Of a stretch of DNA of 64,000 bases, positions 14,157-23,947 are shown piece after piece (position 1 is the first letter of the stretch; every line of letters begins with the position of its first letter). The notes under the pieces are model-generated. The model was not told the origin of the DNA. It worked only from the letters and a program-made list of their open reading frames with translations, and made no database searches. Position numbers and translations under genes: made by a program. This DNA comes from Candidatus Falkowbacteria bacterium (lineage in GTDB: Bacteria > Patescibacteriota > Patescibacteriia > Patescibacteriales > WJLG01): positions 26,659-90,658 of the forward strand of contig CAVVFV010000012.1 of the NCBI GenBank assembly GCA_963747695.1. Direction: 5' to 3'.

Positions 14157-14447
14157 ATGGCAGTTGAAAAGACGGTCGTGGAAAAAGGCGCGAAAGATTT
14201 TGCCATCGGCATGGCCGTTTACAGCAGTGCTTCAGTCTTGGGACCGTTGATCATCTTCGGCGTCATCGGATATTTTTTAGACAAGGCTTATCATGGCCGG
14301 CATTTGATCCTGCTGATCTTTATCGGCATCGCTTTCATCATCAGCAATATTTTGATCTTCCGCAAAGCTTTCGCGATCACGGCCCAACTGAAAAATTTTA
14401 AAGGCAATGGCAAGAACGGATATGATGATGAAAATGACGATGATTGA
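14157..14447 (+). CDS. Small two-TM membrane protein, AtpZ/AtpI-like by position upstream of atpB
   Basis: Two hydrophobic helices, acidic tail; synteny only. Confidence 0.4.
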   Translation: MAVEKTVVEKGAKDFAIGMAVYSSASVLGPLIIFGVIGYFLDKAYHGRHLILLIFIGIAFIISNILIFRKAFAITAQLKNFKGNGKNGYDDENDDD

Positions 14448-14462
14448 TTACGCAGATAATCA

Positions 14463-14589
14463 TTTGTCATCCTGAGGCCCCTGGCCGAAGGATCTGATCC
14501 TTCCCGTGTAAAAAAAAGTTTGTTTTTAAGATAAATTTTGTGCGTCCTTGGAAGGAGCAGATCCTTCGCGCGGCGCTCAGGATGACAAA
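14463..14589. repeat. Repeat family K locus 1 (TTTGTCATCCTGAG...GAAGGATC / GATCCTTC...CTCAGGATGACAAA)
   Basis: Inverted arms at 14463-14494 and 14560-14589; relatives at 19925-20070 and 63091-63142. Confidence 0.8.
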
Positions 14590-14593
14590 ATAA

Positions 14594-15331
14594 ATGAAAT
14601 TAGAAATTTCCATATCTCCCGAAGCGGTATTTCACATCGGTTCCTTCCCAGTAACCAATTCTTTTTTATTGATGGTGATTGTAACCTTATTCTTGGTCGT
14701 CTGCGTGATTATTTTAAATAGAAAGATCAGAATGATCCCGAAAGGTTTTCAGAATCTGGTGGAAATGCTTTTTGAAGGCGCGCTGGATTTTGTCGACACG
14801 ATTATGCTGGATAAAGAGAAGTCGCGCAAGGTTTTCCCGTTTGTCTTTTCTTTGTTTATTTTTATTCTGATCGCCAATTTGGTTAATTTCATTCCCGGCC
14901 AGGCGGCCTTGACGATATATAACGGCGCGAAGTTCGTACCGGTTTTCCGCGGCGTGATGGCGGATTATGGCATGGTCTTCGTTCTGACGATGATTTCCTT
15001 TATCACTGTGCAGGTCGTCGGCGTGATGATGTGCGGTCCGTTCGGCTATTTGGGAAAATTTTTCAATTTCCATAGTCCGATCAAGCTTTTTGTCGGCATT
15101 CTGGAGTTGGTCGGCGAATTCGCCAAGATCCTTTCCTTGTCTTTCCGGTTGTTTGGAAATATCTTTGCTGGTGAAGTCTTGTTGTCAGTTTTCTTATTTT
15201 TATTTCCGTTTCTGCTGCCTTTGCCGTTCTTGGCCCTGGAATTGATCACCGCAGTCATTCAGGCGTTCGTCTTTGCCGTTTTGACCTTGGTATTCATCAA
15301 GATGGCGGGGGAGACGGCAGAAAGTCATTAA
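14594..15331 (+). CDS. atpB: F0F1 ATP synthase subunit a
   Basis: Polytopic; conserved Arg context LSLSFRLFGNIFAGEV. Confidence 0.9.
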   Translation: MKLEISISPEAVFHIGSFPVTNSFLLMVIVTLFLVVCVIILNRKIRMIPKGFQNLVEMLFEGALDFVDTIMLDKEKSRKVFPFVFSLFIFILIANLVNFIPGQAALTIYNGAKFVPVFRGVMADYGMVFVLTMISFITVQVVGVMMCGPFGYLGKFFNFHSPIKLFVGILELVGEFAKILSLSFRLFGNIFAGEVLLSVFLFLFPFLLPLPFLALELITAVIQAFVFAVLTLVFIKMAGETAESH

Positions 15332-21607: not shown

Positions 21608-22024
21608 AATTATAAATTATAGATTATAAATTATAAATTTAATGAAGGAGGAAAACATTATCAAAGATAAAAGCCACAAATTTGCTTTAAGAATAATTAA
21701 ATTATATAAATATTTAGTCAGTGAAAAGAGGGAATATGTTTTATCTAAACAGGTGTTAAGGAGCGGTACGTCGATAGGCGCAAATGTTGAGGAAGCAATC
21801 GGCGGTCAATCCAGGAAAGATTTTGTTGCCAAAATATGCATAGCTTACAAAGAAGCGCGTGAAACGAAATATTGGTTGGAGCTGCTGCGCGACGGGGAAT
21901 ATCTGGAAAAAGTATTTGCCAAATCAATTTTAGATGACTGTAACGAGATTTGTAGGATAATTGGGAAGATTCAATTAACTTGTAATAATAAAAATTTATA
22001 ATTTATCATTTATAATTTATAATT
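21607..22024. mobile_element. IR-bounded cassette carrying a four-helix-bundle (Avd-like) gene between atpG and atpD
   Basis: aaattataaattatagattataaattataaatttaatg (left) vs aaatttataatttatcatttataatttataattatg (right). Confidence 0.5.
21642..22001 (+). CDS. Four-helix-bundle protein (23S rRNA intervening-sequence protein / DGR Avd-like family)
   Basis: KFALRIIKLYKYL...SKQVLRSGTSIGANVEEA...KDFVAKICIAYKEARETKYWLELL matches family hallmark segments; low GC. Confidence 0.7.
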   Translation: MKEENIIKDKSHKFALRIIKLYKYLVSEKREYVLSKQVLRSGTSIGANVEEAIGGQSRKDFVAKICIAYKEARETKYWLELLRDGEYLEKVFAKSILDDCNEICRIIGKIQLTCNNKNL

Positions 22025-23416
22025 ATGACCAACGAGATTAAGAAAAATATTGGAAGTATTAAACAGATAATCGGAGCCGTGGTAGATGTCATCTTTGAAA
22101 AAGATCTGCCGGAAATTTTTAACGCTTTGGAAGTGGTGAAAGAGAACGGCGAGAAATTGATTCTGGAAGTCGAGCAGCACACCGGTTTCAATGTCGTCCG
22201 CTGTATCGCCATGGGCTTGACCGATGGTTTGAAAAGAGGGGACACAGTTACGGATACCGGCGTGGGTATCCAGGTTCCGGTCGGCAAGGAAACTTTGGGC
22301 CGCATCTTCAATGTTTTGGGCGATGCCGTCGATGGCAATCCGACTCCGAAGACGGCCAAGAAATATAATATCCATCGCCAGGCTCCGGATTTTACTGAGC
22401 AATCTACCAAGACCGAGATTTTGGAAACCGGCATCAAGGTTATCGATTTGATCTGCCCGATTGCCAAGGGCGGCAAAGTCGGTTTGTTCGGCGGCGCCGG
22501 CGTTGGCAAAACCGTCGTTATCCAAGAGCTGATCAATAATATCGCCAAAGCGCACGGCGGTTATTCGGTTTTTGCCGGTGTCGGCGAAAGAACTCGCGAA
22601 GGCAATGACTTATATCACGAAATGAAAGACGCGGGCGTGTTGGATAAATTGGCCATGGTTTTCGGTCAGATGAATGAAGCGCCGGGCAACAGAGCGCGCA
22701 TCGCGTTGGCTGGCTTGTCGCTTGCCGAATATTTCCGCGACGAGATGAACCAGGACGTGTTATTCTTCGTTGATAATATTTTCAGATTTACCCAGGCCGG
22801 TTCGGAGGTTTCCACTTTGCTCGGCCGCCTTCCTTCCGCCGTAGGTTATCAGCCGACTCTCGCTACTGAAATGGGCGAACTGCAAGAGCGCATCACCTCC
22901 ACCAATAAAGGTTCGATCACTTCTATCCAAGCTGTTTATGTTCCGGCTGACGATTTGACCGATCCGGCTCCGGCCACGACTTTCGCGCACTTGAATTCCA
23001 CCGTGGTGCTGTCCCGCGGCTTGACTGAACTCGGCATTTATCCGGCCGTTGATCCGCTCGATTCTTCTTCGATCATTTTGGATCCGATCATTGTCGGCCA
23101 AGAGCATTATGATGTGGCCCGCGGCGTGCAGAAAGTTCTGCAGCGCTATAAAGATTTGCAAGATATTATCGCGATTCTCGGTATGGAAGAATTGTCCGAT
23201 GATGATAAGCAGACCGTCTCTCGCGCCAGAAAGATCCAGAAATTCTTGTCCCAGCCGTTCCAGGTCGCTGAAGCTTTCACCGGCCGCCCGGGAAAATTCG
23301 TCAAGCTCGCCGACACGGTCAAAGCTTTCGGTGAAATTCTTTCCGGCAAGCACGATGACAAGAGCGAGGATGAATTCTATATGAAAGGCGGAATTGAGGA
23401 AGTTGGAGTTAAATAA
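22025..23416 (+). CDS. atpD: F0F1 ATP synthase subunit beta
   Basis: [10 protein letters not shown]-loop, DELSDDD region; 463 aa. Confidence 0.95.
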
Positions 23417-23518
23417 CCAATAAGAAATATCCAATAACCAAAAAATATTTAAATATTAAAATATTATAATATTTTTTTAAATATTGGTTATTAATTATTT
23501 GATATTATCAGATTTAGT

Positions 23519-23947
23519 ATGGATAAAGTTATAAAATTCGAAATAGTTACTCCCGAACGAACCGTCTTAAAAGAAGATGTGGTTGAGGTTACCATTCCGA
23601 CCTTGGAAGGGGAGGTGACGATCTTGCCGCATCACGCGCCGCTGGTCGCCACGCTCAAGGCGGGGGTTTTGGTTTTGAAGAAAGCGGATGGTAATGTCGA
23701 TGTCGCTTTTGTCGCCGGCGGATTTTTGGAAGTGCTCCGCAATAAAGTCGTGGTCTTGGCCGACACGGCCGAACGCGCCGAAGAAATTGATCTGGCCAAA
23801 GTCGAAGAAGCCAAAGCCAGAGCGGAAAAAGATATGAAGGAAGTCCGCCACGAGGATGCCGAAGAGTTCGCCCGGATCGCCGCCCAGCTGGAACATGAAC
23901 TCGCCAAAACCAGAGCGGTTAACCGCTGGCGCAACAGATCAAAATGA
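23519..23947 (+). CDS. atpC: F0F1 ATP synthase subunit epsilon
   Basis: Beta-sandwich N-terminus IVTPERTVLKEDVVEVTIPTLEGEVTILPHHAPLVATLK plus helical C-terminus. Confidence 0.85.
   Translation: MDKVIKFEIVTPERTVLKEDVVEVTIPTLEGEVTILPHHAPLVATLKAGVLVLKKADGNVDVAFVAGGFLEVLRNKVVVLADTAERAEEIDLAKVEEAKARAEKDMKEVRHEDAEEFARIAAQLEHELAKTRAVNRWRNRSK

Follow-up and report, generated by a model that had tools for sequence, protein, structure and literature searches.

How does an ATP synthase (atp) operon come to hold five foreign genes between its own genes and remain intact? The question is raised by a 64,000-nt stretch of DNA (the window) from Candidatus Falkowbacteria bacterium (GCA_963747695.1, contig CAVVFV010000012.1, positions 26,659-90,658, forward strand), a metagenome-assembled genome (MAG), in which the operon occupies positions 14157-23947. 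The explanation we favor, at a probability of roughly 0.72, is that the spacers of an intact operon were recently colonized by several unrelated small mobile or hitch-hiking modules, including (i) a cassette encoding a GIY-YIG nuclease; (ii) a cassette resembling the intervening sequences (IVSs) of rRNA genes; (iii) minus-strand units; and (iv) an AlaX-like gene. The observations behind it are the identities of the inserted genes, their foreign composition and lineage-specific presence, the pairing of empty with filled sites, the placement of cassettes in hairpin loops, and the occurrence of the GIY-YIG cassette at different junctions. Genes were called from an open reading frame (ORF) listing together with Pfam and NCBIfam scans, with some atp subunits assigned by tblastn to relatives, and were found in the following order.

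14157-14447, plus strand: host gene for an atpZ/atpI-like small membrane protein (PF09527, E = 1.1e-5; 25.9 bits, below the cut-off of 26.6)
14594-15331, plus strand: host atpB, Fo a subunit (PF00119, E = 8e-42; GC content at third codon positions, or GC3, 0.593)
15362-16033, plus strand: inserted AlaX-like gene (Pfam/NCBIfam)
16063-16293, plus strand: host atpE, c subunit (PF00137, E = 6.8e-21)
16501-16995, plus strand: host atpF, b subunit (PF00430, E = 5e-25)
17072-17368, plus strand: inserted GIY-YIG gene, 98 aa (PF01541, E = 3.2e-15)
17414-17815, plus strand: host atpH, delta subunit, 133 aa (PF00213, E = 1.7e-27, profile positions 48-171)
17864-18121, minus strand: inserted TM85, an 85-aa membrane ORF with three transmembrane (TM) segments; no family
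18327-19862, plus strand: host atpA, alpha subunit (ORF; tblastn to relatives; 95% identical to the relatives L002 and L097)
20143-20532, minus strand: inserted TM129, a 129-aa membrane ORF with three TM segments; no family
20609-21607, plus strand: host atpG, gamma subunit (ORF; PF00231)
21642-22001, plus strand: inserted IVS protein (IVP) gene, 119 aa, 23S_rRNA_IVP / S23p four-helix bundle (PF05635, E = 1.6e-28; TIGR02436, E = 7e-31)
22025-23416, plus strand: host atpD, beta subunit (ORF; tblastn to relatives; 91% identical to L002)
23519-23947, plus strand: host atpC, epsilon subunit (ORF; tblastn to relatives)

This order had been proposed in an earlier note on the same DNA and was reproduced by the ORF, Pfam and NCBIfam scans; the note had counted four interrupted junctions, whereas inserted genes were found at five (atpB-atpE, or B-E, and likewise F-H, H-A, A-G, and G-D). 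The Z-B, E-F, and D-C junctions carry repeat hairpins and no gene. All nine atp genes are intact, and the eight structural F1Fo subunits are full length, in canonical order and on a single strand, as judged by Pfam/NCBIfam for a, c, b, and delta and, for alpha, gamma, beta, and epsilon, by ORFs of full length that could be aligned with those of relatives from one end to the other. In gene order and intact subunits the operon is like the canonical bacterial atpIBEFHAGDC; it differs by its five extra genes, its three gene-less hairpin spacers and its short delta subunit. The atpH product lacks the first ~47 positions of the oligomycin sensitivity-conferring protein (OSCP) profile; since alignments with relatives begin at residue 1 and reach about residue 124-133 of 133, this short form is normal for the clade, and truncation of atpH by the GIY-YIG insertion was ruled out, 133 aa being the clade-wide length.

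The composition of the inserted genes sets them apart from the host genes. Against a reference set of 29 long host genes from the window (GC3 0.587 +/- 0.040), and with codon usage expressed as a synonymous-codon log-odds z score, all five were found to be strong outliers (GC3 z -3.6 to -7.3; codon-usage z -3.8 to -6.9): the AlaX-like gene (GC3 0.308, z -6.9; codon z -4.1), the GIY-YIG gene (GC3 0.293, z -7.3; codon z -3.8), TM85 (GC3 0.442, z -3.6; codon z -6.9), TM129 (GC3 0.377, z -5.2; codon z -6.0), and IVP (GC3 0.358, z -5.7; codon z -5.1). The atp genes fall within +/-2 SD, the exception being atpH (GC3 z -3.8; codon z -1.3). The AT-richness that the earlier note had ascribed to the inserted genes by eye is thus borne out by quantitative GC and codon statistics.

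Comparison with relatives showed the presence of the inserts to be lineage-specific. An AtpA scan yielded 80 loci, one genome per species (GTDB species representatives), all from Patescibacteria and mainly Falkowbacteria-like, in which a junction was scored as expanded when its spacer was at least 250 nt. In the closest GTDB-representative relative, L002 (AtpA 95%, other subunits 76-91% identical), the operon is a compact Z-B-E-F-H-A-G-D-C with spacers of 66-175 nt, and all five inserted genes are missing. Closer still is the metagenomic contig L097 (AtpB 91%, AtpE 96%, AtpA 95%), which carries the GIY-YIG cassette at F-H and, at A-G, a 60-aa minus-strand ORF unrelated to TM129; with AlaX and TM85 both missing, the GIY-YIG cassette is the only insert that it has in common with the window. 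Most of the 80 relatives (57) have no expanded junction, while 19 have one, two have two and two have three, as against five in the window; the atpZ-like gene keeps its position in 43 relatives. The proportion of expanded junctions in the window (5/8) was greater than in the clade (29/559; binomial P = 2e-5, uncorrected for phylogeny), and the expansions are unevenly placed (G-D 12/69, H-A 7/78, A-G 5/79, at most 2 at each of the others; chi-square P = 2e-5, likewise uncorrected). Their contents include a GIY-YIG gene (L033), an IVP fragment (L061), a PDDEXK_3 gene (L064), an NYN gene (L052), and many low-GC minus-strand small ORFs that are mutually unrelated. The architecture is therefore not one that relatives share, whereas an identical architecture in all of them had been named in the earlier note as a refutation, and it would have been built by several separate, recent events.

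One of these modules is the GIY-YIG cassette at F-H, which is bounded by hairpins that resemble repetitive extragenic palindromes (REPs).

17005-17406, plus strand: GIY-YIG cassette of ~400 bp, consisting of two direct REPs, the gene and one inverted REP
17005-17028 and 17039-17062, plus strand: direct TGTC-tagged REP hairpins upstream of the GIY-YIG gene
17383-17406, minus strand: inverted REP downstream of the GIY-YIG gene

The gene is enclosed by an inverted repeat of 28 nt with no mismatch (17040-17067 / 17378-17405), the second direct copy lying further upstream, and the predicted RNA fold pairs the two arms and leaves the whole ORF in the loop (z -6.7). The empty site is preserved in L002, where the F-H spacer reads CGTCATTCCC, 30 nt, and GGGAATGAC; the filled site of the window reads TGTCATTCCC, 381 nt including the GIY-YIG gene, and GGGAATGAC, with the distances to atpF and atpH as in L002. 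The cassette was also detected (i) between atpF and atpH in L098, which, like L097, is from an independent sample; (ii) at D-C in L099 (AtpD 95% identical), with 84% DNA identity to the F-H copy of the window and homology that stops exactly at the REP tags; and (iii) at G-D in L033, where two direct hairpins and an inverted one are arranged as in the window. In L100 the gene is a frameshifted pseudogene. These alternative sites suggest that the cassette moves between spacers as one block.

The encoded protein is of the stand-alone UPF0213/Slx1-like type, with 1zg2 (UPF0213 protein BH0048) as its sole PDB match; beyond PF01541 only faint PHROG matches were found (E = 0.0056), and exact-protein look-ups of this protein and of TM85 returned no record. 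Its catalytic domain is that of the free-standing and intron-encoded GIY-YIG homing endonucleases such as I-TevI and the Seg proteins, and like them it is scattered among conserved genes in a patchy, selfish manner. Unlike them, however, the 98-aa protein consists of the catalytic domain only, no intron is present and the gene is bounded by repeats, which are not a feature of those enzymes; a classical homing endonuclease was ruled out on the lack of a DNA-binding domain and of an intron.

The REP of the window has the form TGTC-ATTCCCGC-GAAG-GCGGGAAT-CCA and is located at 17005, 17039, and 17383 (minus strand). CGTC-tagged REPs are described as having a CGTC/TGTC tag, an 8-9-bp stem starting with AT, a 4-5-nt loop, a CCA tail and an arrangement in head-to-head pairs (PMC3733652). 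Each of these features has its counterpart in the window (tag, 8-bp AT-starting stem, 4-nt loop, CCA tail, and head-to-head arrangement), and the family of that survey includes Rickettsia RPE-4/-6 and Neisseria dRS3. Three strict copies and six related copies with the sequence TTGTCATYC are present in the window; seven of the nine genuine TTGTCATYC copies lie inside the atp operon, some of them as head-to-head doublets that occupy the Z-B and A-G spacers without a gene.

The association of gene and repeat was found to recur well beyond this operon. When metagenomes were scanned with the GIY-YIG proteins of the window and of L033, 80 loci were obtained (50-95% identity), in which hairpins were counted within 150 nt of the gene. 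A tagged hairpin is present upstream in plus orientation at 55/80 loci, downstream in minus orientation at 53/80 and in both places at 47/80, with the wrong orientations found at 2 and 11 loci. The density of tagged hairpins is 5.45 per kb near the ends of the GIY-YIG gene compared with 0.11 per kb in the remaining 260 kb of these loci (~50-fold). The stems vary among loci by compensatory changes (ATTCCCGC, ATTCCGAAC, ACCCTGAAC, ATGCTGAAC, and others), and protein identity tracks stem similarity (Mantel rho -0.40, 0/999 permutations). In having one small nuclease gene between inverted tagged palindromic repeats the cassette is like REPtrons, and with REPIN-RAYT systems it also has in common gene-less head-to-head doublets nearby and gene-repeat codivergence (PMC3116915, PMC3337134). 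Unlike a REPtron, its enzyme is a 98-aa GIY-YIG protein (Slx1/UPF0213-like) rather than a HUH tyrosine transposase of the IS200/IS605 type, and its repeats are CGTC/TGTC-tagged rather than GTAG-tagged. In contrast to the 2013 survey of CGTC-tagged REPs, where no dedicated enzyme was reported (Di Nocera et al. 2013, PMC3733652) and which did not extend to Patescibacteria, a GIY-YIG gene is here flanked by the repeats at 47 of the 80 loci. No published link between GIY-YIG proteins and REPs was found in the literature searchable without subscription.

Two further sequences that touch this family were observed. A TGTC-tagged hairpin lies in frame within a GT2-type glycosyltransferase gene (63374-63425; the ORF starts at 63214), where it adds ~17-20 residues (CHSRAGGLPAGQAGNPGCPPV) between conserved segments, as Rickettsia palindromic elements do. 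In L052 (2620-3160), a more distant GIY-YIG homologue has a copy of a long-arm tRNA-like sequence on either side, and the T-arm region of the upstream copy is interrupted by an insertion, a setting unlike that of the REP-bounded cassettes.

The second hairpin-bounded module fills the G-D junction and carries the IVP gene.

21603-22029, plus strand: IVS-like cassette of 427 bp, with 38-nt inverted-repeat arms around the IVP gene
21603-21640 and 21992-22029: arms of the cassette, composed of TATAAATT-like units, 89% complementary and 351 nt apart

The arms take in the stop codon of atpG and the start codon of atpD, and both the minimum free energy and centroid RNA folds pair them, with the whole ORF in the loop (z -3.7). 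Homologous arms are present in L002 with a loop of 40 nt as compared with 352 nt in the window, according to blastn (L002 10690-11676 corresponds to window 20609-21638, and L002 11717-13665 to window 21991-23934); these coordinates were preferred to those of a MAFFT global alignment, which placed the right arm wrongly. Seven of the seven IVP genes inspected, from the window, L021, L056, L061, L091 (grpE-hsp20 spacer), and L094 (dnaK operon), have inverted-repeat arms of 24-38 nt that are 351-383 nt apart and that vary in sequence from locus to locus. When flank inverted repeats were scored across 1472 genes, the IVP, GIY-YIG, and PDDEXK_3 genes ranked at or above about the 98th percentile. A contig from JGI carries a 90%-identical IVP with identical 34-nt and 23-nt spacings to the adjacent ORFs, and the IVP and GIY-YIG ORFs of the window both start with ATGAAGGAGG.

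The IVP protein matches PDB 2rld (E = 2e-34), and its family is huge and crosses phyla: at least 7995 proteins match at E <= 1e-10, and homologues that are 65-79% identical occur in Patescibacteria, DPANN archaea, Caldithrix, and Bacteroidota. The earlier note had called this gene Avd-like, a label that has to be replaced, as Pfam gives 23S_rRNA_IVP and not bAvd and no reverse transcriptase is adjacent. A role as an Avd accessory of a diversity-generating retroelement was ruled out by the neighbors, atpG and atpD, and by the lack of any reverse transcriptase, template-repeat, or variable-repeat context.

The closest known structure is the IVS of Coxiella burnetii, which is 428 nt long, forms a 28-bp stem from terminal inverted repeats, has tandem heptamers in its 5′ part and an S23p ORF in the loop, and is cut out by RNase III (PMC4990558). 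In the rRNA genes of the candidate phyla radiation (CPR), insertions encoding IVP and GIY-YIG proteins occur at helix tips or bases (PMC11270868). The window element is like the Coxiella IVS in length (427 nt) and in its stem-forming terminal inverted repeats (stems of about 28-38 bp), like ORF-bearing 23S rRNA IVSs in general in its S23p/IVP ORF in the loop and short tandem repeats in the arm or leader, and like rRNA IVSs in lying co-directionally inside a highly transcribed unit. In contrast to IVSs at helix 25 or 45 of 23S rRNA, it is located in the atpG-atpD mRNA spacer, copies in relatives lie in the grpE-hsp20 spacer or the dnaK operon, and its arms include the neighboring stop and start codons. 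The G-D element thus has the structure of an IVS and not its 23S rRNA location. Overall, the inverted-repeat placement of the GIY-YIG and IVP genes points to small hairpin-bounded mobile cassettes.

Hairpins are not confined to the two filled sites; the remaining atp spacers with repeats are as follows.

14463-14590 (Z-B): two hairpin repeats of the TTGTCATCCTGAG... type placed head to head, like a REP doublet; no gene
16368-16500 (E-F): hairpin with arms of ~8-nt units around a 45-nt GC-rich module at 16411-16455 (-62.8 kcal/mol, z -7.3)
18245-18326 (H-A): hairpin of TAATTAGT/ACTAATTA 8-nt units, gene-less and abutting atpA (-25.8 kcal/mol, z -6.0)
19857-20072 (A-G): GCGAATAC 8-mer arm at 19857-19897 and TTGTCATCCTGAG head-to-head doublet at 19923-20072
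23419-23506 (D-C): AT-rich hairpin, no gene (fold z -2.9)

The A-G doublet is conserved in L002, and the GC-rich module of the E-F hairpin recurs at 10403-10454 and 54445-54496. Every atp spacer of the window, of L002 (6540-13255), and of L097 (1900-3840) contains an AT-rich inverted repeat of ~8-nt tandem units, whose unit sequence changes between junctions and, at the same junction, between close genomes, so that position is kept while sequence turns over rapidly.

On the explanation that we favor, these hairpin-forming inverted repeats would already have been present in the spacers of the lineage, and two co-directional cassettes would have come to occupy their loops. Pairing of the arms in the transcript would bring the upstream stop codon beside the downstream start codon, and the paired arms may be excised by an RNase III-type activity, as for rRNA IVSs; the host operon would then remain functional, and its promoter would drive transcription of the passenger as well. 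The GIY-YIG nuclease may act on REP hairpin or cruciform DNA and in this way drive copying of the cassette into other REP-bearing spacers. A more far-reaching proposal, which we hold tentatively and at less than even odds, is that stand-alone UPF0213/Slx1-like GIY-YIG proteins are the dedicated enzyme of CGTC/TGTC-tagged REPs (the Rickettsia RPE and Neisseria dRS3 types), gene and REPs forming a GIY-YIG "REPtron" that would spread by structure-specific cleavage of REP hairpins or cruciforms and copying into REP-bearing spacers; on the same proposal, ORF-bearing IVS-type hairpin cassettes would be a class of mobile element found between the genes of highly expressed mRNA operons as well as in rRNA.

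The rival that survives best keeps the hairpins and dispenses with mobility: they would be host regulatory RNA structures with a role in processing, stabilization or attenuation, in whose loops cassettes survive as the sole neutral site, with no targeting by GIY-YIG and no cassette-borne repeats. It has in its favor that such hairpins occur in ~40% of the window's intergenic regions of at least 40 nt (21/53) besides every atp spacer of the three genomes named above, that hairpin-sized spacers go with gene-sized inserts among the relatives (Spearman 0.50, P = 1e-5), and that the sequences of IVP arms differ between loci. The REPs that flank the GIY-YIG gene, however, accompany it among 80 unrelated loci, in a fixed orientation and in covariation with the protein, and the D-C cassette of L099 bears the REPs of the F-H copy, whereas the D-C hairpin of the window is AT-rich and unrelated. 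We regard this explanation as doubtful, though to be taken seriously.

The three remaining inserts have no such hairpin frame, as neither inverted nor direct repeats bounding the AlaX, TM85, and TM129 inserts were found. The first of these occupies the B-E junction.

15339-16026, plus strand: low-GC AlaX insert, carrying the ORF at 15362-16033 (AlaX-M-like, trans-editing)

Its product aligns over its own full length (residues 4-207) to the AlaX-M of P. horikoshii (2e1b_A, E = 8e-25), with the zinc motifs HxxxH (HSALH) and CxxxH (CGGTH) kept. Against the NCBIfam AlaXM model it scores E = 1.7e-32 and 113 bits, below the 300-bit equivalog cut-off and so indicative of a divergent AlaX-M member. 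Neither L002 nor L097 has the insert; the breakpoints of homology are 15338 and 16027. Its nearest homologue lies within hrcA-grpE-dnaK right beside atp, while the family is CPR-wide and the contexts in other genomes are unrelated to atp. The most fitting view is that a cellular gene was acquired by horizontal transfer and came to lie in an operon that is well expressed. The description of the inserts as selfish in the earlier note does not suit this gene, which is of cellular type and not obviously selfish.

The other two inserts are encoded on the opposite strand and come with transcription signals of their own.

17816-18244, minus strand: TM85 unit, with terminator at 17822-17850, ORF at 17864-18121, AGGAG Shine-Dalgarno sequence and promoter-like site running from 18203 to 18175
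20076-20608, minus strand: TM129 unit, with ORF at 20143-20532, GGAGG Shine-Dalgarno sequence and promoter-like site running from 20615 to 20587

The promoter-like site of TM85 is TTGACA-17-TATGAT with a TG (11/12 sigma-70-like matches), and that of TM129 has 10/12 such matches. An intrinsic terminator had been proposed for TM85 at 17813-17850; a 12-bp stem followed by seven U residues was indeed found at 17822-17850 and is the best terminator-like site of the region (-19.1 kcal/mol, z -6.1), with no U-tract after the hairpin on the plus strand. For TM129, a weak terminator-like hairpin followed by eight U residues is located at about 20085-20125. The TATAAT boxes that had been noted ahead of atpA are present at 18193 and 18243 on the plus strand, yet neither has a usable -35 element and the hexamer occurs 82 times in the window; no convincing plus-strand promoter was seen ahead of atpA. 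The division of the operon into at least two transcription units, which the earlier note had considered probable, is a hypothetical one. Both units adjoin spacer hairpins rather than lying inside the hairpin loops, and they look like self-contained, insulated minus-strand units. Searches for homologues of TM85 with HMMER gave no match besides itself among 1.84 billion representatives, and TM129 matched only itself among 5.8 billion proteins.

Two side observations concern these ORFs. The atp genes have no recognizable Shine-Dalgarno sequence, while both ORFans have a strong one (18122-18140 and 20533-20550). In addition, the minus-strand small membrane ORFs at the G-D junction of two distant relatives, L056 (11911-12126) and L071 (11618-11914), have a short motif in common, IAAIIT..H.(D/F), which hints at a fast-evolving family below the detection of phmmer.

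An alternative is that the inserts were recruited and are kept by selection for co-expression, with the membrane proteins serving, for example, in the assembly or regulation of Fo and AlaX in growth-coupled editing. In its favor, the co-directional genes are tightly spaced (23-34 nt) with intact ORFs, the zinc-binding motifs of AlaX are kept, its nearest homologue is likewise in a highly expressed operon, and relatives repeatedly have small membrane ORFs on the minus strand at H-A, A-G, and G-D. But the membrane ORFs are ORFans that run opposite to the operon, and those of different genomes are not related to one another; the IVP, GIY-YIG, PDDEXK_3, and NYN families are characteristic of selfish elements or rRNA IVSs; AlaX is otherwise found in contexts unrelated to atp; and the GIY-YIG gene has decayed in L100. 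Recruitment is accordingly judged improbable. Neither was there support for an anti-phage defense or prophage origin of the inserts: PADLOC gave no defense-system match, PHROGs gave only weak matches (to AlaX and GIY-YIG), Rfam and tRNA scans gave no match inside the atp operon, and no rRNA or intron was found in the window by Rfam.

Several points weigh against colonization by mobile modules. The excision of paired arms and the nuclease-driven copying are steps that we infer. The strict definition of a tagged hairpin leaves 17 of the 80 GIY-YIG loci without one, and some host genes likewise score as flanked by inverted repeats, owing to hairpins of one family in the spacers next to them. For the ORFans TM85 and TM129, the sole signs of coding in these putative genes are their promoter, Shine-Dalgarno and terminator signals. 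The AlaX-like gene, of cellular type and with no flanking repeats, does not fit a selfish element. The empty hairpins of L002 may be footprints of lost cassettes, so that gain and loss at F-H and G-D could have run in either direction. Finally, the hotspot statistics ignore phylogeny, and the contrast between the operon (5/8 junctions) and its L002-syntenic flanks (2/9) was not significant (P = 0.15).

The last of these bears on the claim of the earlier note that the operon is a hotspot, which holds in part. The operon is extreme against the clade and also within the window, where it makes up 15% of the sequence and holds 5 of the 11 low-GC3 small ORFs (P = 0.017; by junction, Fisher P = 0.003). 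At the level of families, 6 of the 10 IVP, GIY-YIG, PDDEXK_3, or NYN genes in the relatives' loci lie in atp spacers, as against ~38% of the sequence, a difference that is not significant. Since hairpins of the same kind are spread through ~40% of the intergenic regions, the operon is a heavily hit place in a permissive genome and not a unique target. The word hotspot is thus fair for this one operon in this one genome; what underlies it looks like a lineage-wide permissiveness of hairpin-bearing spacers, to which local hopping of the GIY-YIG cassette perhaps adds.

If the L002 hairpins at F-H and G-D were deletion footprints, the extra genes could have belonged to the operon of the common ancestor and been lost in most relatives, a history with which the GIY-YIG cassette common to the window and L097 and the identically spaced IVP on another contig would also agree. 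Such an ancestral architecture is very improbable when set against the strong GC3 and codon outliers among all five genes, the compact operons of 57/80 relatives (many with spacers of 1-30 nt and no room for remnants), the different A-G occupants of close relatives (TM129 and the unrelated 60-aa ORF), and the GIY-YIG cassette at three different junctions in different genomes. A metagenome assembly artefact, in which low-GC reads were chimerically joined into the atp contig, is extremely improbable even though the source is a MAG and the inserts differ in GC from their surroundings, as the TM129-atpG and AlaX-atpE junctions are reproduced in separate assemblies (the independent Logan contigs L001 and L082, respectively), independent samples show the GIY-YIG cassette at F-H (L097, L098) and D-C (L099), and insert boundaries that coincide with inverted-repeat arms, with all atp ORFs intact, are not expected of chimeras.

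Other repeats and small ORFs were observed in the window outside the operon. A ~300-nt repeat at 10164-10454 and 54184-54496 (79-85% identity) includes the 45-nt GC-rich module (CCCCTCTTGGGAGGGGTGCCGAGCCCGGCGAGG...) and has no Rfam match. Nine head-to-head-paired copies of CGTAGGAACGCAATATTTTGCGTTC (800-856, 25116-25173, 28599-28668, 47679-47740, and 60233-60289) look like a GTAG-tagged REP family in Patescibacteria. The segment at 13526-14041, missing from L002, holds two similar ORFs of 63 and 64 aa (13569-13760 and 13785-13979) that start with MSIL, have basic tails and normal GC, and gave no Pfam match. The segment at 8168-8817 is window-specific relative to L002 and holds a 111-aa ORF of low GC3 (0.41; 8347-8682), with no family match, just upstream of an L10 leader (Rfam RF00557, 8801-8924). 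Among the relatives, atpB of L078 (2996-3942) is seemingly split into two ORFs, for which a frameshift or assembly error may be the cause.

No published work on interrupted atp operons in CPR bacteria was found in the literature searchable without subscription. The main addition made here, read from sequence comparison, is the anatomy of the inserts: an IVS-type cassette in an mRNA spacer, and a REP-bounded GIY-YIG cassette with empty and alternative sites. The recurrent association of a GIY-YIG gene with outward-facing CGTC-type REPs that bracket it makes the nuclease a candidate for the enzyme of this orphan superfamily of REPs, for which none was reported in 2013. An IVS-type cassette in atp, grpE, and dnaK operons suggests that IVS elements are general parasites of highly transcribed units, and its place in an mRNA spacer offers a concrete setting in which to probe the role of the very abundant S23p family. 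An essential operon in a genome-reduced bacterium tolerates five foreign genes yet stays intact, apparently because the passengers are either placed in hairpin loops or insulated at the level of transcription. In operon-based annotation and in checks of MAG quality, housekeeping operons of Patescibacteria should not be presumed uninterrupted.

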